Shown here: piece by piece, positions 5,150 to 46,270 of the stretch | Layout of the letters: the number at the start of each line of letters is the position of its first letter | How positions within the stretch are numbered: the first letter of the stretch is position 1 | From: an uncultured Planctomycetota bacterium | GTDB taxonomy: Bacteria > Planctomycetota > Phycisphaerae > Tepidisphaerales > Tepidisphaeraceae | Direction of reading: 5' to 3' | DNA length: 64,000 bases | Assembly: GCA_963841915.1 (NCBI GenBank) | Contig: CAWJEN010000005.1 | Location: 800,001-864,000 of the forward strand | The notes under the pieces: generated by a model | The model's database searches: none | What the model was told of the DNA's origin: nothing | The model's input: only the letters and a program-made list of their open reading frames with translations | Translations under genes and position numbers: made by a program

Positions 5150-6031
5150 TCAGATCGTCTCGCGCAGCCCCGACTTCTGGCCGCCCGACAGCGCGTGGTC
5201 CAGGACTTCGTCGTGCAGGTGCAGCTTGGCCAACTCCTCGTTCATCTCCGTCAAGTCGTCCTGCGGCTCGTACCCCAGCAGCTCACGGGCCGTGTCGATG
5301 CTCATCTTCTTGAACCGGTTGTCGCTCAAGCCGTGGACCACTGCAAACTTCAGGTGCTCGGCCTCGACGGCCTTCTGCAACAACTGGTTCAAGTCCCGCT
5401 TGCTCACGAACGAGTCGATCAGGTGCACCGCCTGCTCGACCTCGTGGGCGTCGTCGAACTTGTGCGTCGGCTGAAACGCGCCGATGCGAATCGCGATGCA
5501 CTGCACGCCTTCCTGCTCGGCCATGTAGCGGCCCATCGCTTCGCCAAAGCACTTCGTCACGCCGTACAGGTCGCCCGGATTGACCGGGTCATTCGGGGCG
5601 ACCTGCCGATCGCTGACGTAGCCGCCGACGGCGTGGATCGAAGACGCATACACGACACGCCGTACGCCCGTGCTCTTGGCGGCGGCGAACATGTTGTACG
5701 TCCCGACGATGTTGACCGGCAGCAGCGAGTCCCACGTCGCACTCGGCGAGGGGTCGGCTGCCAGGTGCAGAACCACGTCGATGTCCTGGCACGCCTTGAT
5801 GCAGTCTTCGAGCCTCGTGACGTCGCTGACGATGACCTTGCCGAGTGTTCCGACCTTGGACGTGTCGTCGCGTTCGTGGCAGAGCAGCGTCAGGTCGTAC
5901 CGGTCTCCGGCGTGCTCGGCAAAGTAGCTGCCGATGTTGCCCGCCCCGCCGGTGACGAGGACGCGAAGCTTCCCACCGGCCGGTTGGTAGTTCGAGTGAA
6001 GGGGCTCGACGAGCGAAAAGGATTCAGCCAT
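5150..6031 (-). CDS. NAD-dependent epimerase/dehydratase (uronate dehydrogenase-like)
   Basis: VLVTGGAGNIG, YASSIHAVG, YGVTKCFGE and IRIG motifs. Confidence 0.85.
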   Translation of the reverse strand: MAESFSLVEPLHSNYQPAGGKLRVLVTGGAGNIGSYFAEHAGDRYDLTLLCHERDDTSKVGTLGKVIVSDVTRLEDCIKACQDIDVVLHLAADPSPSATWDSLLPVNIVGTYNMFAAAKSTGVRRVVYASSIHAVGGYVSDRQVAPNDPVNPGDLYGVTKCFGEAMGRYMAEQEGVQCIAIRIGAFQPTHKFDDAHEVEQAVHLIDSFVSKRDLNQLLQKAVEAEHLKFAVVHGLSDNRFKKMSIDTARELLGYEPQDDLTEMNEELAKLHLHDEVLDHALSGGQKSGLRETI

Positions 6032-6124
6032 GGGCAGCGTTGTAACGACGCCGCTCCATGCTGGCGATGGTCAAAACAAGTCCGCTTGTGCTGCGACGTT
6101 CGCACGCGGTGCGACACGCACCGC

Positions 6125-7411
6125 TCACTCCGCCAGGCGGGCGCGGTACTTATCACGCAGCCGCGTGTGGTGGCTCGACAGGTCGACCCGGCGGCCGTTG
6201 ACCCAGGCGTCGGTTACATGGCTCGTCACCTCCAGGATGTCGCCGTCGGCAATGAAAAGCGTCGCTTCTTTGCCTTGGCCAAGACTGCCGACTTTGTCGG
6301 CGACGCCAAGAATCTTTGCCGGCCAGAGCGTCAGCGAAGCGACGGCGTCTTCGGCGCTAAGGCCGTAGCCGACGGCCGAAGCGGCGTGGTACGGCAGGTT
6401 CCGCGTAAACGCCGCCCCGCGGTCGGCACTGATGGCAAAGGTCACGCCCGCTTGCTTGAGTGCTGCCGGCAACGCATAAACGGCGGCCACGTCGTCGTCG
6501 CGGCGGTCAGGCAGCCGCTGGATCCCGTCGATGATCACCGGCACGTCGTGCTCGATCAGCAGGTCGCTCACCAACGCCGCGTCGCGGCCGCCGATGATCA
6601 CGAGGTCGAGTCCGCGGCGGACACCGAACGCCACCGCCGACTCGATCTGCGACGCCTCGTCGGCGTTGACGAACACTTTGGCCTCGCCCGCCAGGGCCGG
6701 CATCATCGCCTCCATCGACGCGTCGTAGGCAATCGTGTCGTCGGCCGCCTTGGCCCGGCGGTACTGCCTGGCCTGGTCGAAGATCGTCTCGATCCTGGCG
6801 AGGTTCTCATCCCGCTCTTTGGCCTGTTCTTCAGGCGTTTCGTCGTTCCACCACGCCGTGTTGGGCAGCAGGCCCGGCCAGTTGAGGACCAGGCCCGTCG
6901 ATGCCAGCGTCATGTCCTCGTACGTCCAGCCTTCGAGCCGCATGACGGCCCCGGTGCCGCTGACAATGCCGCCCTCGGGGTGACTGTGGACGAGCAGCAC
7001 GCCGTTGGCGCGTGTGGTCGCTACGTGTTCGGAATCCGGGTTGAAAGCCAGTTGTGCCTTGGCTTCCGGCGAGACGTTGCCGGCCTCGTCGAGATCGCGT
7101 GAGGCGCGGACGGCATTGACTTCGACGAGGCCGACTTCGGCCGAGGCGTCGATCAGGCCCGGGTAGACGTGCTTGCCGCTGGCGTCGATGACGAGGGTGC
7201 CTTCGGGCAGCGTGTAGAGCTCGACATCGCCGAGCACATCGGTGATGACGCCGTCTGCAGTGATGACGATGCCCTTGTCGATCGTCTCGCCGCTGACGGT
7301 GTGGACGGTGCCGCCGACAATGGCGACGTTTTCCACCGGGCCTGGCACGTTGTCATGCGCAACGGTCGCCGCAGCGGGAAGCAGGAGGATGCACAGCGAA
7401 AGTCGCAGCAT
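6125..7411 (-). CDS. Exported amidohydrolase-family protein
   Basis: Signal peptide; IDASGKHVYPGLID and PAKILGVADKVGSL...GKEATLFI. The HxH metal motif is absent (IDASAE). Confidence 0.85.
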   Translation of the reverse strand: MLRLSLCILLLPAAATVAHDNVPGPVENVAIVGGTVHTVSGETIDKGIVITADGVITDVLGDVELYTLPEGTLVIDASGKHVYPGLIDASAEVGLVEVNAVRASRDLDEAGNVSPEAKAQLAFNPDSEHVATTRANGVLLVHSHPEGGIVSGTGAVMRLEGWTYEDMTLASTGLVLNWPGLLPNTAWWNDETPEEQAKERDENLARIETIFDQARQYRRAKAADDTIAYDASMEAMMPALAGEAKVFVNADEASQIESAVAFGVRRGLDLVIIGGRDAALVSDLLIEHDVPVIIDGIQRLPDRRDDDVAAVYALPAALKQAGVTFAISADRGAAFTRNLPYHAASAVGYGLSAEDAVASLTLWPAKILGVADKVGSLGQGKEATLFIADGDILEVTSHVTDAWVNGRRVDLSSHHTRLRDKYRARLAE

Positions 7412-7533
7412 GATGATCGTGGTCAGGGTTCTGGTGGTTCGGCATGGGGTCGATGCCGCGCCGTCAGGGAGCCGGGGGTGTCGGGGTGTGTCGGTTGTGT
7501 TCTCGCAAGCTCCGACTCTGATCCGAAAGCAGG

Positions 7534-10500
7534 TCAGTGGTCAAAGGCGTGGCAGGCTTCGTCGTGGCGTGGCCACAGGTCGCTGGGACGTGTGGTGGAG
7601 CCCGGCTCGGCGGGCGTTTCGCCGCTGCCGAGCACCTTCTGGATGAGGGCCGCCTTCATCTCGGCGTTCTTCCTGGTCATGGCCGCGTGTTCTTCGCGGT
7701 CGTAGACCTTCACGCCGTCGACCCAGGTCTGCTCGACCACGCTGGTCGAGCTGAGCGGGTGGCCGCTCCAGACGACGAAGTCGGCGGCCTTACCGGGTTC
7801 GAGGCTGCCGACAAACTCGTCGATGCCGAGCTGTTTGGCCGGGTTGAGCGTGACCATCTTGAGGGCCTCTTCCTCGCTGACGCCGCTGTACTTGACGACC
7901 TTGGCCGCTTCGGTGTTGAGTCGTCGGGCGAGCTCGGCGTCGTCGCTGTTGAGGCTGACGACGACGCCGGCTTCGTGCATGATGCCGGCCGCGTAGGGGA
8001 TGGCGTCCATGACCTCGAACTTGTAGCCCCACCAGTCGCTGAACGTGCTTCCCCCGACGCCGTGGGCGGCCATCTCTTTGGCGACCTTGTAGCCTTCGAG
8101 AATGTGCTGGAAGGTGGCGATCTTGATGCCGAACCCCTCGAGCGTGCGCATCGTCGCCAGAATTTCGTCCTGGCGGTAGCTGTGGCAGTGGATGAGGCGG
8201 TCGCCGTCGAGCATCTCGACAAGCGCGTCGAGCTCGAGGTCGCGTCGGACGGGCATGCCGCCTTCGTCGGCGAACTTCTGTCGGGCGGCGCGGTAGTCCT
8301 GTGCCGCCCGGAAGCTGTCGGCGAAGACTTCCTGAACGCCCATGCGGGTCTGCGGGTAACGGGTGGCAAACTGTTCGCCCCAGTTGCTTTGCTTGACGTT
8401 TTCGCCGAGGGCGAACTTGACGCCCTTCGGGGCTTGGGCCATTTTCAGCTCCTCGGGGCCGACGCCCCAACGGAACTTGACGACCTGGTTTTGCCCGCCG
8501 ATGGGGTTGGCCGATCCGTGCAGGATGTTGGCCGCGGTGGTGCCGCCGGCGAGTTGGCGGTAGATGTCGATGTCGTCTGGATCGATGAAGTCGCCGATGC
8601 GGACCTCGCAGGTGACGGCCTGCGTGCCTTCGTTGATGCCGCCGTCGGTGGCGATGTGGGTATGGGCGTCGATGAGGCCGGGGGTGATGTGGCGACCTGT
8701 GGCATCGACCGATTCGATTCGCTTGCCATCGACGGGATCGGCGGCGAGGTAATGCCACTCCGACCGCTTCTGCTCATCAGCGACAACGCCGATCTTGCCG
8801 TCGGCTAGCTCTATCATCGCGTTTGTCACGACGCCTGCTTCTCCTAACGACCAGACGGTCGCGCCGGTGATGCGCGAGTAGCGCGGTCTTGGTAGCTCCG
8901 AGGCAGACATTCCATACGCCCCGAGCGGGTAGTTGACCTCGAAGAGCGGCGACTTGTCCAAGCGAGCCCCGACCGTGAGGGAGGGGTCTGCGGGTTGCGT
9001 GGACGGTTGGGTGGTCGCGGGAGTCTCAGAAACCCCTCCCTCACGGTCGGGGCTCGCTTCGGAATCTTTCGGAGTCTCATTCTCGTCGACGATCGCCGCG
9101 GTGCCGGGGCGCTGGTCGTCTTCGGTCGGGACGTCGAGCTCCGTGGGCGGTGCGACGCCACCGCGGATGGCGGCTTCGTCGGGGCCGGCGGTAGGTGTGT
9201 TTCCTTCGGGCTTGACCGGCTGCGTCGCGGCCGCGGCGTCGCCGGTGCGGTCGAAGGCGAGCGACTTGCGGGTGCCGTCGGGCATCGACGCGACGCCACG
9301 CAGCGTGCCGCCGGCGAGCGTGAGCGAGACGCTGGCGACGCCGTCCTGGCCGAGCGGTTTGGCGTCGACGGTGAAACTCACGCCGTCGCCGACCTGTTCG
9401 AGGTTCTTCGCATCGGCCGAAGCGTCGCCGGCGGCAAAGCTGGCTTTCCACGCGTCGCCGTCTGCGAGGGTCAGCTTCAGGCCGACCGTCTCCCACACGC
9501 CTGCCAGGCCGTCGGGCTGCCTGGCTTCGATCTCGTAGCGCTCGCCCTCGACCCAGACTTCGACGATCTTCGCCTCACCCGCCGGGTCGAAAAGGTCGCC
9601 GTCGGCAATGACGAAGCTGGCGAGTTTGCCCGCCTCGACAACGCCGAGATGGTCGCCCTGATCGAGCAGGTCGGCCGCCTTGGTTGTCAGCATCGCCAAC
9701 GCCGCGTCGGCGGGCAAACCGCGAGCGATCGCCCGGCGGACGTTCGGCAGGAACTCTGCCACGTCGTCCAGCCCTCGCGTCGTAAAGGCGACGGCCGCCT
9801 CGCGTTCGTGCAGGTAGGCGACGTTGCTGGGCGACAGGTCCCAGTCCATCAGATCCCGCAGCGACGTGGCCGACGCCTTGGCCGGACTCGTCACGTCGGG
9901 CGGTGCGGGAAAGTTGACCGGTACGACGAGCGGCAGATCGGCCTCGGCGACCAGATCCGCCCGGCGATATTCATCACCACTGGCGACGGCAACGGCGTCC
10001 AACTCGAACTCGTCGGCGTACTGCCGAGCCCGCAGGACGAACCGCTCGTCGTCGCACACGATCCATGCGATCATCTCGCCGTCCGCGACCGGCACCAGGG
10101 CCGCCAGGGCGTCATTGTGCTCGACGGCCGGCAGCGTCGGGTCGGCCTCGACCGCGTCGTTCGCATCGCGATACCACTGGGCGTCGTACATCGCCTGCCG
10201 GGCGAGTGCGACCGCGCCCATCGGGCTCCGCGGGTACGGCGCCGGCGTGCCCCATGGCGCGCGCTCGGCCGTGTGTCGCATGGCCATGCCGAGGTCGCTG
10301 GCGAGGACGCGAGGCGTGTCGGCCGTGCTGGCGAGAGCGATTGTTCCGCGGATGATGCCGGTGTCGGGCGCGATGACGCGGGCGACGAAGCCGCTGGGCC
10401 GGGCGGCGGTGGCCGACGAGATCGCGTCGGCGGCGGATCGCTGGGGCGTGACGTACTTGTTCCAGTAGCCGTTGGTCTCGTCGACGGCGGGCACATCGGC

Positions 10501-18983: not shown

Positions 18984-19691
18984 CTACTTCAGCTCGACCG
19001 TCCAGTACGCCTCGTCGAGGAACTGCTTCCACGACGCGTATCGGGCGTCGCCCAGCCGCACGTTGACGGTCGGCGACCGCTTGGGCTTAACGGGCCGGCT
19101 CAGTAGCTTCATATGCGCCTGCTCGGGCGTGCGGCCGCCCTTCTTGACGTTGCAGGCGATGCAGCACGTCACAATGTTCTCCCACGTCGTCGGCCCCTGC
19201 TGACTCCGCGGCAAGACGTGGTCGAGCGACAGCTCGCTCGTGCCGAACTTCTTGCCGCAGTACTGGCACCGGTTGGCGTCACGGGCGAAGATGTTTCGGC
19301 GGTTGAACTTCACCTCCTGCCGCGGCAACCGGTCGTAGCCCAGCAGCCGAATGATCCGCGGGACGGCGATCGGGAACCGCACCGTTCGGATCCAGTCGAA
19401 GCCGTCGGGCTCGAACTTGGCGTGCAGCTCGCTGAGCTCTGTCCACGACTCGAAGTCGAGGTTCTGCCACTGGCTGACCGTGCCGTCCTTGTGAGTCTCG
19501 ATGTGGATGACCTCGGCCAGCTCCTTGCACAGCAGGCCGAAGGCGCGTCGCACGTTGACGATGCGGACGGCTTGATAGTTGCGATTGAGCACAAGCACGC
19601 TGGCGGCAAGGCCACCGGACGAAAGGGCAAGTGCCGCCGAGGTGGTGCCGTGGTCGACGGCGAGATCGTTGAGAGTCGGTAGTCGGCGCAC
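18984..19691 (-). CDS. HNH endonuclease (McrA-like)
   Basis: VLVLN...FNRRNIFARD..CQYCG..LSLDHVLPRS..TWENIVTCC..CN.KKG. GTG start follows an AAGGAG site. Confidence 0.9.
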   Translation of the reverse strand: MRRLPTLNDLAVDHGTTSAALALSSGGLAASVLVLNRNYQAVRIVNVRRAFGLLCKELAEVIHIETHKDGTVSQWQNLDFESWTELSELHAKFEPDGFDWIRTVRFPIAVPRIIRLLGYDRLPRQEVKFNRRNIFARDANRCQYCGKKFGTSELSLDHVLPRSQQGPTTWENIVTCCIACNVKKGGRTPEQAHMKLLSRPVKPKRSPTVNVRLGDARYASWKQFLDEAYWTVELK

Positions 19692-19918
19692 GGTTGAAAG
19701 GTCTCCTTCCTTCGCCCCCGTTGATCGAGGTCGATGGTGCCGAAACTCTACCCGCCGACCGAACATCGGCCAAGCCTGAACCGCGACGTCGGACGTCGGA
19801 GCGTGAGATTTATCATGAAATGAACACGCAGATCTGCAGCGTCACACGCTCCGTCCTTGGGCCAGCGTTGACAGTTCTTGCGCTCGCGCCGCAACCTTTG
19901 GGCAGTAGGGTTCTGAGC

Positions 19919-31058: not shown

Positions 31059-32679
<1,621 letters not shown>

Positions 32680-32836
32680 GGGCGACTCTATCGCCCTGCC
32701 CAGCCGTGGGGTCACTGCAACCGCTGCTCAGGAATGAACAGAACCCGTACGGGCAAGGTCCGATAGTCTTTGCCCTGCCGAACGCGCTGCGCGAATGTGG
32801 CCGCCGTGGCTGATCGGTCCTTAGGGGCCGGGACAA

Positions 32837-33352: not shown

Positions 33353-34327
33353 CTACGACTCGGTTTGCACCTTCAGCCGCTCCATGAGCTGGTCGAACTG
33401 CTCGGCGTTCTTGAGTGTCAGCGTCAGCTTGTAACCGCCCTTACCGGCTGCGGCGACCGTGCAAGGCGTGCCGACGGCCTTTGTCAGCGTCTCTGCCAAA
33501 CGGTTCAGATAGGTCGCACGGACCTGCGCCTCCGACTGGCCGGCTGATCCGGGCTTCGATGCCGTCATCTTCTCGAGCTGGCGGACCGACAGGTTCTCGG
33601 CCACCGCCAGCTTGGCGAGCTTGAGCTGCAGATCACGGTCGTCGACACCGGCCAGCACCTTGGCATGCCCGAGCGGCAGTTTGCCGTCCCGTGCCAGCTC
33701 AACGACCTCACCCGGCAGATCGAGCAAACGCAGGTAGTTGGCGACGCTGGTGCGTTCTTCCCCGAGTCGCCCAGCCAGTTGAGCCTGCGTCATGCCGAGC
33801 TGTCGCTGCAAATCTCGATAGGCTTCAGCCCGGTCGATCGGGTTGAGATCCTCGCGGTGAATGTTCTCGACAAGCGCCATCTCCGCCTGGGCGGCGCGTT
33901 CCACGTGGCGAACGAGGCAGGGCACCGTCTCGAGTTCGGCGAGCTTGGCTGCCCGTAGCCTTCGCTCGCCTGCGATGAGCTCGTACTTGCCGTCGTCGAG
34001 CGGGCGGACAAAGAGCGGTTGAATCACGCCGTTGACTTTGAGTGATGCAGCGAGTTCAGCCAGGGCGACAGGTCCGAAGACGCGGCGGGGCTGGTGCGGG
34101 TTGGGAACAATGTCCGCGGGCTTGAGCTGCCGAAGGACACCCGTTCGGTAGTCCGGCTCGGCTTCCTTGACTGCTTCCGCTGCAGGCGGGGTGCTGCGCA
34201 GGACCGGCTTCGACGGCGGGGCGGCCTCGTCGTCCAGCTGCATCAGGCTGCTGAGACCGCGGCCCAGGCGTGACTTGCGGTTGCCCGCGGGAGCAGAGTC
34301 TGACTTGTCCGTGTTCTTCGACGCCAT
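33353..34327 (-). CDS. parB: Chromosome partitioning protein ParB/Spo0J
   Basis: LGRGLSSL, PNPHQPR, ELIAGERRLRA, ALVENIHREDLNPI and an HTH with VANYLRLL. Confidence 0.96.
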   Translation of the reverse strand: MASKNTDKSDSAPAGNRKSRLGRGLSSLMQLDDEAAPPSKPVLRSTPPAAEAVKEAEPDYRTGVLRQLKPADIVPNPHQPRRVFGPVALAELAASLKVNGVIQPLFVRPLDDGKYELIAGERRLRAAKLAELETVPCLVRHVERAAQAEMALVENIHREDLNPIDRAEAYRDLQRQLGMTQAQLAGRLGEERTSVANYLRLLDLPGEVVELARDGKLPLGHAKVLAGVDDRDLQLKLAKLAVAENLSVRQLEKMTASKPGSAGQSEAQVRATYLNRLAETLTKAVGTPCTVAAAGKGGYKLTLTLKNAEQFDQLMERLKVQTES

Positions 34328-36259: not shown

Positions 36260-36326
36260 GTTCGTCCACCTCTGTCGCACCGTTCGTCCACCTCTGTGGC
36301 ACCGTTCGTCTACCTTTGTGGCACCG
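36255..36326. repeat. 22-bp tandem repeat, about 3.3 copies
   Basis: GCACCGTTCGTCCACCTCTGT(C/G) units with no spacers. Confidence 0.9.
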
Positions 36327-36335
36327 ACGCAAAAT

Positions 36336-37091
36336 CTACGGATAATCCTGCCCGACCGGCCGGAGCGTGAGTTGATTCACGTGCACGTTCGGCGGCTGAT
36401 CGACCGTGAATTTGATCGCCCGGGCCACGTCTTCGGGCTCGAGCATGGCGCCGTACTTCTCGACGACTTTGCCGAAGGTCTCGTGGTCGTAGCCGGCGAC
36501 GTCCTGGAACTCGGTTTTGACGATGCCGGGCTTGATGGTCGTCACGCGGACGCCGCTCTTGCCGACTTCGCGGCGAAGCGCTTCGGCAGCGGCTTCGACG
36601 GCGAACTTCGTGCTGCCGTACGCGCCGCTGAAGGGCGAGACGTTTGTGCCGACGACGCTGCCAAGGACGACGATGTCGCGTGGTCCTGTGCCGTCTTTCA
36701 AGGCGTCGGCGGCGATGCGCATGAGGTGCATCGCGCCCAGCACGTTGACCTGCACCATGCTTTGCCAGGCCGATTCGTCGCTCGAGAGGATACCGCCTTG
36801 CAACCCGCGGCCGGCGTTGATGATGACGATGTCCGGCGGGCCGTCCAGTGCGACACGCGTCTCCTTCCACAGCCGATCGATGTCGGCTGTCTCGCCCGCG
36901 TCGGCGGCGATGGCGGTCGCGTCGCCGCCGACGCTTTTGATCTCGTCGACGAGTTCGTCGAGCCGTTGCTTGCGTCGGGCGCTGACGACCACGCGTGCTC
37001 CGGTCTCGGCCAGCAGCAGGGCGGTTGATCGGCCGATACCGGCCGACGCACCGGTGACAAGGGCGGTTCTGCCTTTCAGTGTTTTGCTCAC
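36336..37091 (-). CDS. SDR family oxidoreductase
   Basis: TGASAGIG, NAG and YGSTK motifs. Confidence 0.92.
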   Translation of the reverse strand: MSKTLKGRTALVTGASAGIGRSTALLLAETGARVVVSARRKQRLDELVDEIKSVGGDATAIAADAGETADIDRLWKETRVALDGPPDIVIINAGRGLQGGILSSDESAWQSMVQVNVLGAMHLMRIAADALKDGTGPRDIVVLGSVVGTNVSPFSGAYGSTKFAVEAAAEALRREVGKSGVRVTTIKPGIVKTEFQDVAGYDHETFGKVVEKYGAMLEPEDVARAIKFTVDQPPNVHVNQLTLRPVGQDYP

Positions 37092-37129
37092 GATCCAGCC
37101 TATTCCGCGCCGGGTCGTAGCATGGGCCG

Positions 37130-38381
37130 TTGTTCCCGCGGGCCCTCATCACCGGTATCGGCTGCGTTTCGCCCAACGGCGTTGGTCGTGAAGCGTTCGG
37201 CGACGCGTGCGTCGGCGGTACCAGCGGACTCAAGCGACCGACAGGCGAGGCGTATGAAGGGCTGCGGACGAGCAGCGTCGGGCAGATCTCGCCGGAGCAG
37301 TTCGATCCCGAGAGCGTGCTGCCTGCGGCGGAATTGAAGCGTTTGCCGCGGGTCGTGCCGCTGGCGTTGGCGGCAGCGACCGAGGCGCAACAACAGGCCG
37401 GGCTTGATGTCTCTGACGAATCCGTCAGCCGACGCGTCGGGCTCGTTCTCGGCACAGGCGGTGGCGGACTCGCCTTCGTCGAAGAGCAGTACAAAGGCTT
37501 TTTCACCGGCCGGCACGGTGGCAGCCCGTTCGCCATCACCGGTGGCACGCACGGCAACCTCGCCGGTGAGCTGTCCATTGCCATGGGTCTTCGCGGGCCC
37601 AGTCATGTTGTCTCCACCGGATGCGCCAGCTCGACCGACGCGCTGGGCTACGCACTCATGCTCATTCGTGCGGGCCGATGTGACGCCGTCGTGTGCGGCG
37701 GGGCGGATGCGCCGATCGCGCCCGGGATCCTGCGTGGCTTCGAACGTATGGGCGTCATCAGCACGCTTCGTTGGGATGACGCGACGTCAGTCGTGTCGGC
37801 CTTTCGATACAGATCGGGATGGTCTTGTGTTGGGCGAAGGCAGTTGGATGTTCGTCGTCGAACGCGAGGGTTGGCGAAAGGGCGTCACGCCGTTGGCACA
37901 AGTGGCCGGGTATGGCAGCACGAGCGACGCGTACCACCGCGTGCGGATCGACCCGGACGTGACCGAGTGCGTCCGAGCGATGAGCGACGCCCTGGCCGAT
38001 GCCGGCGTAACGGCAGCCGACGTCGACGCGGTGAATCTGCACGGCACGGGAACGGAAATGAACGATCGCCTCGAAACGGCGGCATTGCACAAGCTGTTGG
38101 GCGGCAGGGCGGGCGACGTGCCGATGAGCGCGACAAAGAGCCTGATCGGCCACCCGCAGGGCGCCGGCGGCAGCGCGGGCGTGGCGGCGGCTGTGCTGTC
38201 GGCACGGCGTGGTGTGGTTCACCCGACGCTTAACCTCGACACCCCCGACCCGGCGTGTGACCTCGATTACGTCCCGGGCGAAGCGCGATGCGTCGACGTG
38301 CGGACGCTGCTCTGCAACTGCATCGCGTTCGGCAGCAAGAACAGTGCACTCGTGCTGAAGGTGCACGAACCCGTCGACTGA
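37130..38381 (+). CDS. fabF: Beta-ketoacyl-ACP synthase, FabF-like (1-nt frameshift near 37787)
   Basis: STGCASS, SCRPFD.DRDG.VLGEG, HGTGT.MND and KSLIGH. Removing T37787 fuses the two ORFs. Confidence 0.85.
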
Positions 38382-39445: not shown

Positions 39446-39871
39446 TCACCGGCTGGCCTGCCACAGGCGTGTCGCAACGATGGCCAGATATGACGCGAGT
39501 ACGAGGTGGAAGACGATCGGGATCATTCCCGGTGGCAGCCATCGGCGGTCCGGGTGCAGATGACCCGAGATGCCATAGCGGACGATCATTCCGCCGGCGT
39601 AGACGATTGCGAAGGCGGCTGTCGCCGTCGCTAATCGAACCCGACGCCGATCGAATGGCCACCGACCAAACGACGCGGCCACGTCGAGCTTGGCCATCGC
39701 TCCCAGGATCAGCACCTGTGCCGTCAGCAGCACAGGATACGGCAGCAGTCCCGACTGCCACTCGTCCATCGCCGGCAACCATTGCGGAGTCGCGACGACG
39801 ACCACGATCTGCCCGACGACGCGGAGCAGGAACAACGCCGACAGCAGCCACATCGCGGCTGCGGCAGTCAC
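39446..39871 (-). CDS. Hypothetical membrane protein
   Basis: Four hydrophobic segments and a WLP..EWQSGLLPYPVLL motif; GTGA overlap with the argH stop. Confidence 0.75.
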   Translation of the reverse strand: MTAAAAMWLLSALFLLRVVGQIVVVVATPQWLPAMDEWQSGLLPYPVLLTAQVLILGAMAKLDVAASFGRWPFDRRRVRLATATAAFAIVYAGGMIVRYGISGHLHPDRRWLPPGMIPIVFHLVLASYLAIVATRLWQASR

Positions 39872-41297
39872 AGCCCGAGCCGCTCTTTCCACTCGGCGAG
39901 CTGCTTCTTCAGCGGCTCGCCACCGGCGGCGCCGGCCGATTGGTAGCGGGCGACGACGTTCCTCGCGCCGAGACACTCGAACACGTCGCCTTCGATCTTG
40001 TCGCTCGCCGCCTGGAACTCGTCGAGCGTCAGGTCTTGCGAGCCGTCGTCTTGCCCTCCTTCTCGCACTTGGCGACGAGGCCGCCGACGACCTGGTGGGC
40101 GGTGCGGAACGGCACGCCCTTGACGACGAGGTACTCGGCGAGGCTGGTGGCGTCCATGAACCCGCCCTCGCACGCGGCCTCGCACTTGTCCTTGACGAAC
40201 TCGGTGTTGTTCACGATCGCCGCGGCCATCGTGAGGCAGGAGCTGACGGTGTCGTAGGCGGCGAAGACGTGCCGTTTGTCTTCCTGCAGGTCGCGGTTGT
40301 AGCCGATGGGCAACCCCTTGCAGATGGTCAGCAGGGCGACGAGGTTGCCGTAGACGTTGCCGCAGCGGCCGCGGATGAGCTCGAGCATGTCCGGGTTGCG
40401 CTTCTGCGGCATCATCGAGCTGCCGGTGGTGTACTTGTCGCGCGGTCTTGATGAAGCCGAACTCGGCGGAGCAGTAGATGATCCACTGCTCGGCCCAGCG
40501 GGAGAGGTGCATCGCGGTCATCGCGCAGGCGTAGACGAAGTCGAGGGCGGCGTCGCGAGAGGCGGTGCGTTCAATGCTGCTTCGAGGTGAGGCTTCGAAG
40601 CGATAACTTGCCAGCGACGAAGCGTCGAGCCGCGTCATTGCAGGATCAAGCGGTAGCGATGAACCGGCGATCGCACCACTTCCGAGGGAGTCGCAGATCG
40701 TGTCGATGACGTGTCCTGCGCGTAGCCGATAGCGGTATTCGATCGGATGCGATCATCTCTGTCCACGCCAGAGCCTCTGCAGCCGCCGAGATTGGCTGTG
40801 CTCGTTGAAGGTGCGTGTACGACGGCATCACGACGTCTGCTGACTGCGATCCGCGAGACGCACAAAGCACGTTGAGCAGGTTGCAAAGCGTTCCAAAGCT
40901 CAAGCGAGCTGCGTCTTGTAGCCACATGCACCAGGTCCGTCGCCACCTGATCGTTCCGGCTGCGCCCCGTGTGCAGCTTGCGGCCCGGCTCGCCGACCTT
41001 GTCGATCAGGGCCTTCTCCACGCACATGTGGATGTCCTCGTACTGCTTGTCGAAGCCCGCCCAGTCCGGGCCGGCCTCGTCGATCTCGGCCTCGATCTCG
41101 CGGAGGCCGCGCTCGATGGCGGCGCGGTCGTCCTCGGTGATGAGGCCGACCTTGGCGAGCATCGCGGCGTGGGCGAGGCTGCCGGCGACGTCCTGCTTGT
41201 ACAGCCGCCAGTCGTAGCTGACGCTCTCGACGAAGTCCTGCCCAAGGGCGTCGGTCGCCTCGGCGATGCGGGCCTGCCAGCTCTTTTGTTCGCTCAT
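39868..41297 (-). pseudogene. argH: Argininosuccinate lyase with multiple frameshifts (true pseudogene or consensus errors)
   Basis: EDIHM, KLHTGRSRNDQVATD, MPSYTHLQRAQP, SSMMPQKRNPD, YNRDLQEDK and GVPFRTAH are spread over different frames. Confidence 0.85.
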
Positions 41298-41319
41298 GCT
41301 CGACCGTAGCAACAGCACG

Positions 41320-41402
41320 AAGCGAGCCCCGACCGTCAGGAAGGGGTTCCGGTCGGTGCCAATGCACGTTCCGAAACCCGCTCCCTCACGGTCGGGGCTC
41401 GC
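41320..41402. repeat. REPIN-like inverted repeat (family A), intergenic
   Basis: Left arm is 26/28 identical to the arm at 8960-8987; right arm at 41376-41402. Confidence 0.85.
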
Positions 41403-41426
41403 GCTCCCGACATGATGTCGATCGCC

Positions 41427-42578
41427 TTAGCTCAGTCCGGTGATGAGGCCGTGGCAGTTCTCGTTGCGGAGCTCCATCGTGTACTCACCAATGACCTGAC
41501 CGGCCTCGCGGTCGCCGGTGCGGGCCAGCGGCTTGTAGCCGAAGCTGCGACCGGCCAACGGCAGCACGCTCGCCCGGCTGCTGTCGAGCAACAGCACCGA
41601 GCCGCTTGGCATTGCCCGGCTGAGGACGACGCGGCAGACACCGAAGTCGCTTTCGTAGACGCCGATGCCGTCGCGGAACGTCTCGGCAGAGCTGGCGAAC
41701 CGCCGACCGGCGTCGGTGAACTGGTTGATGGCCCGCTTCTGCCTGCCGCCGACGACGATGGTGTCGACGGTCGTCCCGCCGCCTTGCCAGATGGTGCGGA
41801 GTGCAAGGTTGAGCTGCTCTTCGGTCAGCGTCGCATCGGCCGGAAAACCGTCGGTGTTGGGGACGAAGCGGTGCGTGGCGACGCTGGCGATGATGCCGCG
41901 CATCGTCCGCGGCGTGTAGGCGTCACCCGCCGGATTGCCGCTCGGCGGGTTGGCGTCGGCGGCACCGAGCAACAGGCTCGTCTCGAGTTCACGAAGCAGC
42001 TCGCGCAGACGCATCGCCTTCTGGTACTCGAGTTCGTCGGCCACGCCGGCTTGTCGGACGGCCAGCTCGCTGCCACTGACCTCGACGCTGGCGGCAAAGA
42101 TCTGCGTCGTGTTGGAGCGACGCGTCCGGTTGGTGAATCGGGCCGCCGCAGCGTCTGCGCCTTCGAGCTGCGGGGCTGCGATGACGATAAGGGCATCACC
42201 GACGGCCGGGTCTGCACCGACGGGCGTGCCGCCGTAACCGCGGGTCACGCGAAACTCACTGGCACCAGCGAGCTCTTCGACCCGCATGACCTCGGCCGAG
42301 TCACCGACCCGGACGAGGTCGTTGATGCGGACAAGGTCTGCCGCTTCGATGGTGATCCAGACGCCCGCGTCGAAGACGGTGACGACGGATCGATCCGGAA
42401 GCGGCGCATCTTCGAGCCATTCGTGAACAACGCCGCGGGCCGGGCGGCCGGGATCACCCAGCAGGTCGAGCAACGGCGTCTCCGTGGCGGCGGCGATGGC
42501 GACGAGATCGGCAACGTCTTCGACGTGCTCGGGCAGCTCGGCACCGGCAGAATAAGTGGCTTTTCCAGTAAAAGGCAT
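41427..42578 (-). CDS. Phage-like major capsid protein (DUF5309/SU10 type)
   Basis: ETPLL..LG, HEWLED, EGAD, RSN.TQIF..SVEVSGS, DELEYQK, R.MRGI and LARTGD...GQVIGEYT.E.RNE motifs; AAGGA RBS. Confidence 0.85.
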   Translation of the reverse strand: MPFTGKATYSAGAELPEHVEDVADLVAIAAATETPLLDLLGDPGRPARGVVHEWLEDAPLPDRSVVTVFDAGVWITIEAADLVRINDLVRVGDSAEVMRVEELAGASEFRVTRGYGGTPVGADPAVGDALIVIAAPQLEGADAAAARFTNRTRRSNTTQIFAASVEVSGSELAVRQAGVADELEYQKAMRLRELLRELETSLLLGAADANPPSGNPAGDAYTPRTMRGIIASVATHRFVPNTDGFPADATLTEEQLNLALRTIWQGGGTTVDTIVVGGRQKRAINQFTDAGRRFASSAETFRDGIGVYESDFGVCRVVLSRAMPSGSVLLLDSSRASVLPLAGRSFGYKPLARTGDREAGQVIGEYTMELRNENCHGLITGLS

Positions 42579-42632
42579 GGGTTCCTTGTGAGGGTTGAGA
42601 AGCGAGGAAAGAATGACGACAAGGGCTGCGGA

Positions 42633-42866
42633 TCAGCCGCCGCGGGCGAAACGGGCGCGGAGGCTGAGGTACTCGCGGAGCAGGCCGGCGGCGGGTCGCG
42701 GACGGCTCAGCGCCTCGGCAAGCGTCGAGAAGCGGCGACGCTCCGGATCGATCGGCTCGTCCGCCGGTGGCCGCTTCGTGGGAGGCGGGCCGAGGTCTTC
42801 GCCTACGGGCTGGTGTGCGGGTGTGCCCGGCTCGACGGGTTCGGGAGGTGTGGGTTGGTCTTGCAT
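42633..42866 (-). CDS. Small Pro-rich protein, candidate capsid scaffold
   Basis: 77 aa between portal and capsid on the same strand; disordered N-terminus and an amphipathic basic C-terminal helix LLREYLSLRAR. Confidence 0.5.
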   Translation of the reverse strand: MQDQPTPPEPVEPGTPAHQPVGEDLGPPPTKRPPADEPIDPERRRFSTLAEALSRPRPAAGLLREYLSLRARFARGG

Positions 42867-43077
42867 GGATGTGACGTTGGAGAGGACCGAGGGCGGCCGG
42901 GGCGAACGCGTGGCGGCAGGGGGAAGTGAGTTGCGCCGGGCCAACAAGTGCGGCTCGCGACGCGTCGAGGAACGCCTTCCACGCGCCCGCCCCGGCCGTC
43001 GTCGGCGGGAGCGGAGGGAGAATGAAAACGGCAAAGGAGACGGAGCGGCCAAGGCGAACCGGTGGCTCTGGGAGGAA

Positions 43078-44694
43078 CTAATCGGGACTTGCTGCGAACT
43101 GCGGTGCTTCGTCTGTCGCGGCAGCTTCGCCGCCGTAGCCGAGCTCGCGGAGGATGACGTCCTGCGAGACACCGATGTCGCGTTTGAGCCGTGCCTGCTC
43201 AAGCCGATCGGCATCGTCGGCGGGAATCGGGTCGGGCCAGGTGATGCGGACGCGACGTTCCTGCGGCGTCGTGGCGAACAGGCCCAGCGCGTCGAGAGAG
43301 GCGAGTGCGAGCTGACAGATGTTGGCGATGCCGTTGCCGTAGTTGGCCCGCTTGCGGTCGGTACGGGCCAGCAGCGACTGGAAGGTCAGGCGCAGTGCCG
43401 AGGCGCTGGTGAGATTGCCGATGCGGCCGCGGATCGCGCCACTGGCGGCCGGGTTGACGCCGCTTGCCTTGTCGAGCGCTTCGCGTGCTTCACGGATGGC
43501 GTCGTTTTCACCGGGATTGGTTGCGCTACCACCAAACTCGAAGACGCGGGCGTCGGGGTTGTCGGCCTGCCACATCTGGCCCGGTGCGATCTTCTGGTCG
43601 AGGAAGTTGTCGATGCCGACACCGAGGTACATGCGGCTGGCCTGCAGGGCGATGCGGCCGGCGCGGTCACTGAGTCGTGTGTTGAGTTCATCCTGCAGCG
43701 GGATGAGCGGCTCGACGTCACCCGCTCCGGACCAGGCGAACGGTCGGGCAACGTTTTGCACGTGCGCCAGCGGCAGGCGGCCTAGCGGGTTGGTTCCTTC
43801 GTCCACCAGGCGGCCGTCGCGGTAAACCTGCCAGCCGCGCGGGCCGACGGCTTCGACGATGAGTGCTTCTCGAGGGTTCTTCGTCGTCGACTTCGGGAAG
43901 AAGCGGACGAGCCAGTCGCGATGGGGCGATGTCGGTTCATCGACATCGAGCGGCACGCTGTAGGCCTGCAAGTACGCGCAGGCCCGGCTGCCGTCGTCGG
44001 GGTGAAGGATTGGCAGTGACCGAGCGGGCTCGACGAGTTCGAGCCGAACGCGATTGGCCAGGGCGGTGGTTTCTGCATCGCCGTCACCGATGCCACCACC
44101 AAACGGGGCGACGTCGCAGGCTTGGATTTCAGACTCGGGCACGACCTTCACGAGCACGTCGGCTGAGCCGTAGATGCTGCCGACGAGTGCGAAGGTCTGA
44201 AGGAAGCCGAGTCCGCCGTTGCTGGCGATCATGGAGCGGAGCAGGTCACCGATGACCTTGGCTCGCTTGGGATCGGGTGCGATTGATTCGAGCGTGAACG
44301 GGCGGCCGAAGAGGAAGTCGACGTTGGTGTCGATCCTCCAGCCGATGTCGTTCTCGACGACGACCTCCTTGCGACTCATCGTTGTCGGCACGCCACCGAA
44401 CGGTTCGCGGCCGGCGGTGAAGCCGGTGATGCGGGGCGGCATGCCCCATTCCTGGGCTTGCCTGTAAGAGCGGGCCGAGCCGTCGGTCGGGGTGAAGGCC
44501 CGGTGCGGGTTGCTGTAGTACGACCAAAGGCGGCGGTAGCGGACCGCGTCATCGTCGAGCAGCTCGCGGGCGGCCTTGTCGATCCGTTTGGCGGCGGCGA
44601 GGGAACCATCGAGCATCGGGTGACCGGCGTCGGTGGGTTGGGCGATGTCTCGCAGGTCGTACCGTGGTGGTCGGTCGCTAGTTCGGTGCGGCAT
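43078..44694 (-). CDS. Phage portal protein (SPP1 gp6-like)
   Basis: LWSYY, N...WRID..VDFLFGRP, NPLGRLP, G.GDVEPLIPLQDELN.RLSD, ITWPDPIP and S...IL.ELGY motifs. Start uncertain (44727, 44694 or 44616). Confidence 0.85.
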   Translation of the reverse strand: MPHRTSDRPPRYDLRDIAQPTDAGHPMLDGSLAAAKRIDKAARELLDDDAVRYRRLWSYYSNPHRAFTPTDGSARSYRQAQEWGMPPRITGFTAGREPFGGVPTTMSRKEVVVENDIGWRIDTNVDFLFGRPFTLESIAPDPKRAKVIGDLLRSMIASNGGLGFLQTFALVGSIYGSADVLVKVVPESEIQACDVAPFGGGIGDGDAETTALANRVRLELVEPARSLPILHPDDGSRACAYLQAYSVPLDVDEPTSPHRDWLVRFFPKSTTKNPREALIVEAVGPRGWQVYRDGRLVDEGTNPLGRLPLAHVQNVARPFAWSGAGDVEPLIPLQDELNTRLSDRAGRIALQASRMYLGVGIDNFLDQKIAPGQMWQADNPDARVFEFGGSATNPGENDAIREAREALDKASGVNPAASGAIRGRIGNLTSASALRLTFQSLLARTDRKRANYGNGIANICQLALASLDALGLFATTPQERRVRITWPDPIPADDADRLEQARLKRDIGVSQDVILRELGYGGEAAATDEAPQFAASPD

Positions 44695-44708
44695 GACCGG
44701 CCGAATGC

Positions 44709-44738
44709 GTTGCGCCGATTTGGCCAAATCGGCGCAAC
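44709..44738. promoter_or_regulatory. Perfect 30-bp palindrome upstream of the portal gene
   Basis: GTTGCGCCGATTTGG|CCAAATCGGCGCAAC. Confidence 0.55.
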
Positions 44739-45070
44739 AGGCCGCGATTTTCAGAAGCGAGGGCGAATCTGGCGCAGCTACAAGGGTTCAAGCTGATCGA
44801 TGCGCGCTGCGCGTATTTGGCCGCAGACGCGCTTTACAGACTCGGCGGCCGTTGCAATGTGGCAGAACGCGTCGCGGGTACAGCACTATCGGTCGCCGAT
44901 GTGGTGTGGGCGATGGTTGATTCACGTCGCATGGGCCGGTAGGGTCGCTGTCCCGCCCGCGTCGGCTCATCTCGCTGTGCCGCACCCGAGCGGCGGCGGG
45001 CCGACGTTCCTGCCAGTTACCGGTAAGCGTCGTCTTACGGGTGATTGCCCCCGCTACCGTTCGCCGCGTC

Positions 45071-46270
45071 ATGCCCCGCGACCCGTCGACCCTTCTTAAC
45101 GTCAAGCTTGCCTCGGCCGCCGCTGCCGTCGCACTCTTCGCCTCCGTCGCCCACGGTCAGGATGCCCCTGCGCCGGTCAACGACGTCCCGACCAACGTCC
45201 GCAACAGCAGTGACGCGTCGGGGATACGTCAGCAGTTGGATGGTTTCTTTACGACGCAGGTCGGCAAGCTGCGTGGCGAGGACCACGCTGCCGCCGCCAG
45301 CGCCGGGCGAGCCATCGCCGCCGCCGCCGGTGGTGACACGAGTCCGACCTACCGCGATCAATACACCCGCGCCGCTGCCGACGCCTTGTCGCCGTTGTTC
45401 GAGGCTGGCGACACGAAGGCAGACCTGCCCGCCCGCCTGGCCGCAGCCGTGGCGATGGAGTCGGTCGCCCGTCAGACGTCCAACGCGCGCCTCATCAAGC
45501 CGGTCGAGAGCATTATCGCCGACGAGCACCCGGCGGTGGCCTTGTGGGGCATCCGCGCGTCGCAACCGCTCATCGCCACCAGCGTGCGTCAGGCCATGGT
45601 TGGTCGTGAACCGCTCGTCGAGGCCATCGTCAAGTCCGTCGAGCAGCACCCGACGCAGGGGTACATTGCCCACGAGGCGTACATCGTGCTCCGCGACGTC
45701 GGTGGCGGCGGCTTTGTCCAGGGAAATGCAGACTTTGTTGTGCCCAGTTCAGGCCGGGCGCAGGTGATCGATGCGACGCTCAGCCTGATCGAGACGCGGC
45801 TTGGCGCTTATGGCCCACCCAAGGACGTGGAGGTCAGCCCGCTGCCGCAGACGCCGCCCGTGCCGCTGGCCGAGCGACCGGCGACGCAGCTTCTGGCCAG
45901 CGGAGCCGTTTATCCGTCGCTCGACGCTGCCCAGCAGACGCGGATCCGCGTGGTGTTGCGTGACCTGGCCAAGGCCAGCGGCGAAGCGGCGGCCGTCGCT
46001 GCCGGGGCCACATCAGAGGCCGAGAGCGAAGACCGTGAGCCACTTTCGCAAGCTCGAGACGAATTACGTAACCTGCTGACAGTCACCGCACAGGCGACCG
46101 CTTCGCTTGCTGGCACGTCGTTCGAGAACAAGCCGACGGTTGCCGAAGAGGGCCAGCGAGTTTCGGAACTGCCTCGCAGTGCGACGGCTGAGACGATCCG
46201 CGAGCGGATGGAATCCTTTATGGCGTCGTTGAGCGAGGCATATCCCGATTTGCCTGCTGCTTCGGAGTAA
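45071..46270 (+). CDS. Exported helical (HEAT-like) hypothetical protein
   Basis: Signal peptide ending AHG-Q; IADEHPAVALWGIRA repeat-like segment. Confidence 0.75.
   Translation: MPRDPSTLLNVKLASAAAAVALFASVAHGQDAPAPVNDVPTNVRNSSDASGIRQQLDGFFTTQVGKLRGEDHAAAASAGRAIAAAAGGDTSPTYRDQYTRAAADALSPLFEAGDTKADLPARLAAAVAMESVARQTSNARLIKPVESIIADEHPAVALWGIRASQPLIATSVRQAMVGREPLVEAIVKSVEQHPTQGYIAHEAYIVLRDVGGGGFVQGNADFVVPSSGRAQVIDATLSLIETRLGAYGPPKDVEVSPLPQTPPVPLAERPATQLLASGAVYPSLDAAQQTRIRVVLRDLAKASGEAAAVAAGATSEAESEDREPLSQARDELRNLLTVTAQATASLAGTSFENKPTVAEEGQRVSELPRSATAETIRERMESFMASLSEAYPDLPAASE

Follow-up and report, generated by a model that had tools for sequence, protein, structure and literature searches.

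A candidate host-retained phage-head module in Phycisphaerae: portal, putative scaffold and capsid genes of a proposed GTA-like system

Can a bacterium keep the head of a virus for its own use? The question is raised by a short operon in a 64,000-nucleotide stretch of contig CAWJEN010000005.1 (positions 800,001 to 864,000), from an uncultured bacterium of the family Tepidisphaeraceae, class Phycisphaerae, phylum Planctomycetota; this whole stretch is called the window below. All three genes of the operon lie co-oriented on the minus strand and encode a portal protein, a protein of 77 amino acids (aa) and a major capsid protein of the SU10/DUF5309 type (Table 1). Few lineages are known to have domesticated phage particles, and what the host gains from them is still disputed. 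A full-text search of the literature, supplements aside, found no description of such a system in Planctomycetota or Phycisphaerae. An initial annotation had proposed a host-retained head module that might be a gene transfer agent (GTA) with dispersed genes, a portal-bearing compartment or a decoy against phage. Our analysis suggests that the three genes form the head-assembly part of an ancient phage-derived, mainly vertically inherited, GTA-like particle system, a reading to which we assign a probability of roughly 0.55. Bacteria seem to use the virus-derived head themselves.

The three head genes

The portal open reading frame (ORF) matched the Pfam family SPP1_portal (PF05133; E 1.8e-7; score 31 bits, cut-off 25.5) and phrog_104 (E 2.9e-18). 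We modelled the protein with AlphaFold from a 13-row alignment (predicted local distance difference test (pLDDT) 68, predicted template modelling score (pTM) 0.64) and compared the model with the PDB using Foldseek. There were 117 matches at E<=0.001, and the best 50 of these 117 were all phage portals; the top match was the portal of 80alpha (E 1e-11; template modelling (TM) scores 0.48-0.54, and up to 0.57 among the matches listed), and the portals matched included those of 80alpha, SaPI1, Bxb1, T7, N4, SU10 and SPP1 gp6. The SPP1-gp6-like portal that the initial annotation had recognised is upheld by family, by protein cluster and by predicted fold. Identity was 58-66% in three relatives of the same genus and 37-53% across the class. 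The operon had been drawn to end at 44738, which is 11 nt beyond the TTG start of the portal gene. Since the portals of relatives align solely from about residue 21-63 of the 549-aa form, the true start may be further downstream.

The capsid protein matched Pfam SU10_MCP (PF17236) at E 2.4e-79 (267 bits, cut-off 24.1), the alignment covering positions 11-291 of the 292 in the profile; the match to phrog_1328 had E 1.9e-70. A profile of its family matched the PDB entries 9ny2 (E 5e-34), the SU10 capsid 7z45 (E 6e-12) and also 9in6. The sequence AAGGA stands 5 nt ahead of the ATG. Both the capsid type and the good ribosome-binding site noticed at the outset held up. The predicted structure was poor (pLDDT 54.8, pTM 0.42, from a 17-row alignment). 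Its best Foldseek matches were phage capsids (9in6 at E 1.5e-9, 9ny2 and SU10 7z48), with TM scores of only 0.2-0.3. Because of this poor model, the predicted fold is assigned from sequence. Residues ~57-131 form an insertion domain, a small beta-barrel, which was confidently modelled. The four intact capsids of the genus are each 383 aa long, align without gaps and are 75-81% identical.

The 77-aa ORF itself matched no family in Pfam or PHROG. Its N-terminal part is rich in proline, and its C-terminal part holds a conserved motif, a basic helix, which reads EYLSLRARFARGG here. Among 18 related loci, namely those where portal and capsid were both called, the ORF between these two genes ends in the motif [YF][LM]x[LA..]RR in 15; the consensus of this C-terminal motif is EYLxLRRxxR, with a short helix before it. 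In other families the intervening ORF is 149-267 aa long and has a coiled-coil body. One such long form matched Pfam Phage_scaffold at E 5.7e-8 (33.3 bits, below the cut-off of 35), and two matched PHROG scaffold families at E 3e-4. In the family of the window it is 64-105 aa long and made up of a proline-rich stretch and the motif. The window's form lacks the coiled-coil body, and its position between portal and capsid fits a scaffold; the genus copies are 50-61% identical to it. Because the C-terminal motif is common to the long coiled-coil forms, we read the 77-aa ORF as a putative miniaturised scaffolding protein by descent, and the early guess of a scaffold stands in that sense. Such a scaffold remnant is of interest for the question of how a scaffold could evolve into a cargo-targeting peptide.

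Inheritance in the class and a terminase on another contig

Of 41 close relatives, 25 had a capsid match. In a sample of 301 genomes of the class the number was 164, from 118 of 211 genera; both tallies take in one genome, G006, without a capsid match. Families were nearly all-or-none. The gene was present in 13/13 genomes of family f12, 21/22 of f3, 21/23 of f13 and 35/43 of f1, and in the same class sample it was not found in f14 (0/18), f4 (0/12) or f18 (0/12). It is mostly single copy per genome. In a sample of the whole phylum, 20 of 151 genomes had a capsid match, including the window's own genome and five of its class; the matches in the 14 outside the class were weaker (32-46% identity). 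When one genome of each species was scanned, at least 497 loci proved to encode a capsid relative. The best 80 of these carry the labels of Planctomycetota, Phycisphaerae, Tepidisphaeraceae, Phycisphaerales and Sedimentisphaerales metagenome-assembled genomes (MAGs), with a few other MAG labels.

The surroundings of the gene are conserved as well. The portal gene adjoins the capsid gene in 18 of 20 fetched loci, and the remaining two stop at a contig edge. In seven of the 20, all of family f1, argH lies <=5 kb downstream of the capsid gene. Three of the four genus relatives keep the exact order of substrate-binding protein gene, 409-aa ORF, portal, small ORF, capsid and argH, and show this same short locus with no full prophage at the site. 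Capsid identity drops with rank, from 75-79% in the genus to 54-62% in the family and 48-58% in the class. In the capsid tree, family f1 forms one side of a branch with a Shimodaira-Hasegawa-like approximate likelihood ratio (SH-aLRT) support of 98 (89 in a 58-row tree), and the genus does so with a support of 100 in both trees. The capsid gene tree groups by host family and genus.

We then estimated the ratio of non-synonymous to synonymous substitutions (dN/dS) among four genomes of the genus by the Nei-Gojobori method (NG86). The ratio was 0.22-0.29 for the capsid gene, 0.21-0.33 for the portal gene and 0.14-0.27 for the large terminase gene (TerL) described below. It was 0.45-0.58 for the small terminase gene (TerS), 0.26-0.74 for the 77-aa ORF (39-56 codons) and 0.07-0.38 for two neighbouring transporter genes. 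At equal protein identity, lineages with a fuller operon gave the same range as the genus. These ratios, none of the capsid values being close to 1, indicate purifying selection on capsid, portal and TerL within the genus. A prophage remnant was considered and rejected, given the clade-wise presence, the dN/dS of 0.2-0.3, the housekeeping flanks and the lack of an integrase, tRNA or att site in the window. Distribution that is not patchy, tree grouping, dN/dS and synteny in the genus together support the initial idea of a host-retained head module.

The window's genome carries a terminase on another contig, C6, with the portal and capsid genes on contig C5. The TerL ORF scored above the threshold of Terminase_6C and also matched phrog_2 (E 2e-18) and PDB 5oe8 (E 3e-12). 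In a whole-genome Pfam search this was the single Terminase_6C match, and no Terminase_6N, TerL_ATPase, Terminase_3 or TerL_nuclease was found. A 172-aa ORF ahead of it is a TerS candidate (weak phrog_1482 match, E 7e-4). Upstream of TerS are a GNAT acetyltransferase gene, a zinc-ribbon ORF and a gene for a 303-aa ABC-type ATPase, and the block is ringed by non-phage genes. In 13 aligned TerL sequences, the residues that we take to be Walker A (G70, G71, K73, T74) and Walker B (D164, E165) are invariant, as are the acidic residues D314, D366 and D456 in what is presumably the nuclease domain. Four cysteines between the ATPase and nuclease domains (C230, C236, C239 and C245) are also invariant and may form a zinc-binding insertion.

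TerL is present in 181 of the 301 class genomes. Both capsid and TerL occur in 158, capsid alone in 6, TerL alone in 23 and neither in 114, a tally that is a description and not a test, since the relatives are non-independent. The ATPase, GNAT and TerL genes travel together in 7 of 14 fetched TerL loci across the class. In G102, a genome of the same family in two contigs, a single co-oriented block of ~9 kb holds, in this order, ATPase, GNAT, TerL, portal, scaffold and capsid genes together with the accessory genes c2, c5, c6 and c8 described below. In G032 TerL adjoins the portal gene and is contiguous and co-oriented with portal and capsid. G040 has a GNAT-like ORF beside the capsid cluster instead. 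Look-alikes of the ATPase occur in both Planctomycetota and viral clusters, one of them accompanied by a GNAT gene. Capsid, portal and TerL give distance matrices that are consistent by rank. Furthermore, 28 of 80 capsid relatives in IMG/VR also carry a TerL that fits the host profile, ~3-7 kb upstream among the matches listed, which indicates that capsid and TerL share a phage ancestry. The co-occurrence, the contiguity in relatives and the shared TerL in IMG/VR phages indicate that a single phage packaging-and-head module gave rise to both loci of this genome. The orphan TerS-TerL pair favours the GTA with dispersed genes, which gains most among the three options first proposed.

Relatives carry a fuller operon. 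ORF clustering at 20 loci was followed by profile searches of a further 80. Portal, scaffold, capsid and c2 commonly follow one another in that order; c2, a gene of ~217 aa, was found in 72 of the 80 loci. Following c2 in many families are c10 (49/80), c13 (23/80) and c14 (14/80), which were not sized; c5 (~90 aa, 30/80), c6 (~160 aa, 9/80) and c8 (~88 aa, 9/80) come after c2, or after c10-c15 where a locus has these. A language-model comparison made c2 a look-alike of Mu Gp36-type head-tail adaptors (score 0.93), which is a lead only and makes it an adaptor-like candidate. c10 shows a weak similarity (E 0.003) to a tail completion protein. In c5 a hydrophobic stretch at the N terminus precedes a coiled coil, and in c6 a lipoprotein box (L-x-G-C) does so; c5 and c6 appear closer to a spanin-type or membrane pair than to neck proteins. 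Only one of the 80 loci, that of a genus relative (L056), consists of portal and capsid alone with sequence continuing well past the capsid gene. Six others have no downstream gene at all either, but there the contig ends ~1.3 kb or less from the capsid gene. The window holds the most reduced form seen among the loci surveyed. Together, these loci make up a natural deletion series, from the full operon through an operon without tail-like genes to the head and motor only, as in the window. Comparing the products of this series would show which parts the host needs, and hence the purpose of the particles.

What the head may be for

In the genus the system appears split and stripped, with the ATPase, GNAT, TerS and TerL genes on C6 and the head genes beside argH. 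From the gene set, a working order of events can be sketched. The portal ring would nucleate a procapsid, and the conserved basic C-terminal helix of the mini-scaffold would recruit capsid subunits to it. The terminase, with its ATPase and nuclease residues intact, would then dock on the portal and package DNA, and the product would be a tail-less head. We read the locus as a host-retained module, the head half of a dispersed GTA-like system that comprises head and packaging motor here.

One review (PMC11841831) gives as traits of GTAs a core structural cluster, accessory genes elsewhere, vertical inheritance, a small DNA content and lysis-dependent release. The system shares the core cluster, the accessory genes at other loci and a mainly vertical inheritance under purifying selection. 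A head-tail set for delivery was not seen: no adaptor-like or tail-like genes and no c5, c6 or c8 were found in the genome, and c2 was found in no genome of the genus. The locus may work like the head-and-packaging stage of a GTA, and we do not file it as a GTA. RcGTA-type GTAs, the viriforms of Alphaproteobacteria, are similar in that phage-derived head and packaging genes are fixed in the host chromosome, inherited by the host over class-level divergence under purifying selection, spread over more than one locus and free of replication and integration genes. They differ in several respects. Here the capsid is of the SU10/DUF5309 type, the scaffold is separate and no prohead protease was seen; a Terminase_6-type TerL is preceded by an ABC-type ATPase and GNAT; the phylum is Planctomycetota; and no adaptor, tail or lysis genes were found in the window's genus.

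Phage SU10, LUZ24-like podophages and phages of the IMG/VR sister clade share with the window the capsid family PF17236 (7z45, 9ny2), a separate scaffold and the portal fold. Unlike them, the window genes have no phage genome around them, their capsid is 28-40% identical to those of these phages, and the host clade has a stem of 1.03 substitutions per site. Capsids of GenBank phages are <=34% identical to that of the window. In the 58-row tree, host capsids and three IMG/VR contigs form a clade (SH-aLRT 100, stem 1.03) apart from 14 other IMG/VR capsids. The system differs in phage ancestry and in phylum from known domesticated particles, and it extends over at least 497 species-level genomes.

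Several observations weigh against the view of a GTA-like system. The three IMG/VR contigs, L136, L137 and L172, nest inside the host capsid clade, so that the tree groups by host and yet is not wholly without phages. L172, with the complete operon of the host type, is probably a piece of host DNA. The capsid of L136 (a 41-kb contig; locus coordinates 6400-8183) is 73% identical to that of family f2; the scaffold motif is there too, with no portal. Around this capsid lie a different terminase and genes for RecT, exonuclease, resolvase and methyltransferase. In L137 (62 kb; 5970-7124) the capsid lies among DnaB, RuvC and methyltransferase genes, again with no portal. Both could be phages with a borrowed host capsid, or satellites. 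Since their capsids nest in the host clade, phages or mobile elements of these hosts share the capsid lineage, and inheritance appears mainly vertical but not purely so. Moreover, 23 of the 301 class genomes have TerL without capsid, and the branch leading to the genus is long (0.49-0.59) in the capsid trees. The correlation of capsid and TerL identities was r 0.85 overall and 0.26-0.35 without within-genus pairs; this mirror-tree comparison, weak once those pairs were removed, was dropped as support. The NG86 dS values of 0.6-1.0 are probably saturated in a genome rich in G and C at third codon positions (GC3), so that the dN/dS ratios lean upward. One genus relative, G002, has capsid residues 186-383 alone, elsewhere and beside a run of N, and lacks the portal yet keeps TerL intact; with an assembly 89% complete in 270 contigs, loss in progress and misassembly are indistinguishable.

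The missing accessory genes weigh in the same direction. Searches by tblastn and by profiles against six-frame ORFs found none of the adaptor-like, tail-like and membrane or lipoprotein genes of the fuller operon in the window's genome; the orphan head-tail or tail genes that the initial annotation suggested looking for did not turn up. A search of all five genus genomes for c2 gave no match. One c2 profile match, at C6:436939-437160 (E 0.0023), is a short off-frame segment and was set aside as noise. Because these genes were not found, the known parts do not add up to a GTA that delivers DNA, and a head that has no completion proteins may be unable to retain it. The assembly, of six contigs, is 93.8% complete and has frameshifts; absence is for this reason not proven, and a missing gene could lie in unassembled sequence.

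A bolder reading, which we hold to be less likely than not, is that the genus keeps a minimal tail-less, terminase-driven head (TerS, TerL, portal, 77-aa scaffold and capsid) under selection and has discarded all neck, tail and release genes. If so, the head itself would be the useful product, as a DNA container in the cell or shed, or as a sink that captures or cuts phage DNA. A domesticated capsid would then have a use unlike that in GTAs or in encapsulins, and the wider operon would represent a GTA-like system not described before, derived from podoviruses and spread across one class of Planctomycetota. The same reduction could instead reflect slow decay, in which the particle is defunct and the head and terminase genes are unbroken relics or moonlight; we consider this doubtful. 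It would account for the accessory genes not found in the genome, the lack of c2 in the five genus genomes, the truncated capsid and absent portal of G002, the long stem branch of the genus, the scaffold cut down to 77 aa and the higher dN/dS of TerS and of the 77-aa ORF. However, in four of the five genomes of the genus the capsid, portal and TerL genes are free of stops and frameshifts at a dS of 0.6-1.0, and in all four the capsid is exactly 383 aa. Its dN/dS of 0.2-0.3 equals that of full-operon lineages, and frameshifts break argH and other genes of the window, yet the three head genes are intact. An anti-phage function, by analogy with satellites that redirect capsid assembly, would have host capsid, portal and terminase poison the assembly of phage heads or package and cut phage DNA. 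Such a role needs neither tail nor lysis and would fit the reduced gene set; L136, with its capsid 73% identical to those of f2, and L137 imply contact and exchange with the hosts' phages, and there are free phages related to them whose TerL and capsid belong to the same lineage. We nevertheless find it unlikely, as none of nine proteins had a credible PADLOC match, no conserved immunity-type neighbours were seen and the class-wide complete structural operon in most relatives better fits particle production. The two marginal PADLOC matches both concerned the ATPase, which also gave the sub-threshold ABC-ATPase matches in NCBIfam.

Two further readings keep the head and change its partner or its cargo. 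Phage-inducible chromosomal islands that form capsids (cf-PICIs) are mobile and helper-induced, bear an integrase and carry head-tail connector genes. One report (10.1101/2025.02.11.637232) describes them as releasing tail-less DNA-filled heads that join foreign tails. By analogy, heads of the present system might acquire tails from an infecting phage or a prophage. Like these islands, the genome encodes its own capsid, portal and terminase, and no tail of the system was found. A separate siphovirus-type prophage with tail genes lies on contig C5. Unlike them, the locus has no integrase, att site or other sign of mobility, is host-inherited and syntenic across the genus and partly the family, and shows no adaptor or connector gene for joining a tail; the terminase and portal of the prophage are of a different lineage (GpA-type, phrog_21). 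We therefore rate helper-dependent heads as very unlikely. Hardly credible to us is an encapsulin-like, portal-bearing compartment in which the short scaffold would be a cargo-targeting peptide, even though the sole conserved part of that scaffold is a C-terminal motif resembling a shell-binding one and the capsid is more strongly conserved than its neighbours. Encapsulins likewise are HK97-fold shells in cellular genomes, with a short C-terminal peptide that binds the shell interior, but they are not known to have portals. Here a portal is adjacent, a terminase with invariant catalytic residues co-occurs and points to DNA rather than an enzyme as cargo, and the capsid belongs to a phage major capsid protein family and not to the encapsulin family. 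No cargo enzyme with the motif was seen, and none was sought.

Surroundings of the operon and minor observations

Table 1. Features of the head locus, its flanks and the terminase block. Positions are those of the window unless a genome (G000, that of the window) and contig are given.
Feature	Position	Strand	Description	Basis
Portal protein gene	43078..44727	-	549 aa from TTG	Pfam, PHROG, Foldseek
Spacer	42867..43077	-	211 nt, portal stop to 77-aa ORF start	sequence reading
77-aa ORF	42633..42866	-	read as putative miniaturised scaffolding protein	position and C-terminal motif
Major capsid protein gene	41427..42578	-	383 aa, SU10/DUF5309 type (HK97-fold family)	PF17236, PHROG, PDB profiles
argH (argininosuccinate lyase)	39446..41318	-	downstream flank, synteny anchor, outside the system	Lyase_1 and ASL_C2 on separate ORF pieces
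409-aa ORF	45041..46270	+	divergent; N-terminal signal-peptide-like stretch	sequence reading
SBP_bac_5 and permease genes	46.3-54.9 kb		peptide ABC transporter cluster, upstream flank	
parB	33353-34327			Pfam scan of window
TerL	G000:C6:1187743-1189173 (L035:9744-11174)		large terminase, 476 aa	Terminase_6C, phrog_2, PDB 5oe8
ABC-type ATPase and GNAT acetyltransferase	G000:C6:1185161-1187026 (L035:7162-9027)		ATPase without membrane partner; upstream of TerL	

The picture of three intact, co-oriented genes of host-like composition between argH and a peptide ABC transporter cluster, about 7 kb from parB, proved right in all but one point: argH is fragmented. The GC3 of the portal and capsid genes is 0.79-0.81, inside the range of neighbouring host genes. 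The other window genes are housekeeping genes: those for RsfS, GpsA, a peptide chain release factor (PCRF and RF-1 domains), LeuA, UvdE, ParB, the 49-kDa subunit of NADH dehydrogenase (NuoD type) and MreB, besides the peptide ABC transporters. As first noticed, no terminase, protease, tail, lysis or integrase genes were seen in a Pfam search of 57 window ORFs or ORF pieces, a tRNA scan of the window found none, and flanking repeats resembling att sites did not go beyond short chance matches. An Rfam search of the window gave no match. A stand-alone HNH endonuclease ORF of 260 aa lies at 18984-19766 on the minus strand, amid housekeeping genes.

Compared with the 465-aa argH of a relative, the window's gene falls into five tblastn pieces in frames -3, -1, -2, -3 and -2, reflecting either long-read indel errors or a real pseudogene. 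The middle pieces are only 50-68% identical to the relative's gene, and in the genus relative G001 (three contigs) argH is fragmented too. In the regions 31059-32715 (minus strand) and 36310-38381, purH is seemingly split into an AICARFT/IMPCHase ORF and a separate ORF with the MGS domain, and only the C-terminal half of a beta-ketoacyl synthase is found in one ORF. Because the domain matches are split, we ascribe both to frameshifts.

The 409-aa ORF had no match in Pfam, PHROG, PADLOC or NCBIfam. It occurs at the same place solely in three genus relatives, at 42-47% identity, and is probably unrelated to the head system. In the spacer between the portal gene and the 77-aa ORF, no conserved ORF and no promoter-like or terminator-like match was identified. 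Scans of 41200-45200 gave no promoter-like site and one terminator-like site, which lies within the portal gene and is fewer than in shuffles. The sequence GTGAATCAACC, present upstream of the portal gene in three of four genus genomes, was considered as a shared regulatory motif and judged to be chance. Its 9-mer core has 8 genomic occurrences against ~8 expected, and the copy near the terminase locus falls inside the GNAT reading frame.

Near that locus, a 1709-aa RHS-repeat gene lies ~3.5 kb downstream of TerL on the opposite strand (L035:14715-19844; G000:C6:1192714-1197843). It is followed by two ORFs of 269 aa and 396 aa without an assigned identity, and neither it nor these ORFs were found at the TerL loci of genus relatives.

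The siphovirus-type prophage lies outside the window at ~185-213 kb of G000:C5. It encodes a GpA-type large terminase, a lambda-type portal (phrog_21), a head protease, a major head protein, a major tail protein, a 983-aa tape measure protein, a repressor, an excisionase-like helix-turn-helix protein and RecT. It was considered as the missing tail of the system and rejected, its terminase and portal being of an unrelated lineage. A 199-aa ORF in the prophage region (L036:5206-5805, equal to G000:C5:190205-190804) is 38% identical over 80 residues to the beta-barrel insertion of the capsid (BLASTP E 8e-11), a small shared domain that joins a prophage-region gene of unrelated lineage with the domesticated capsid.

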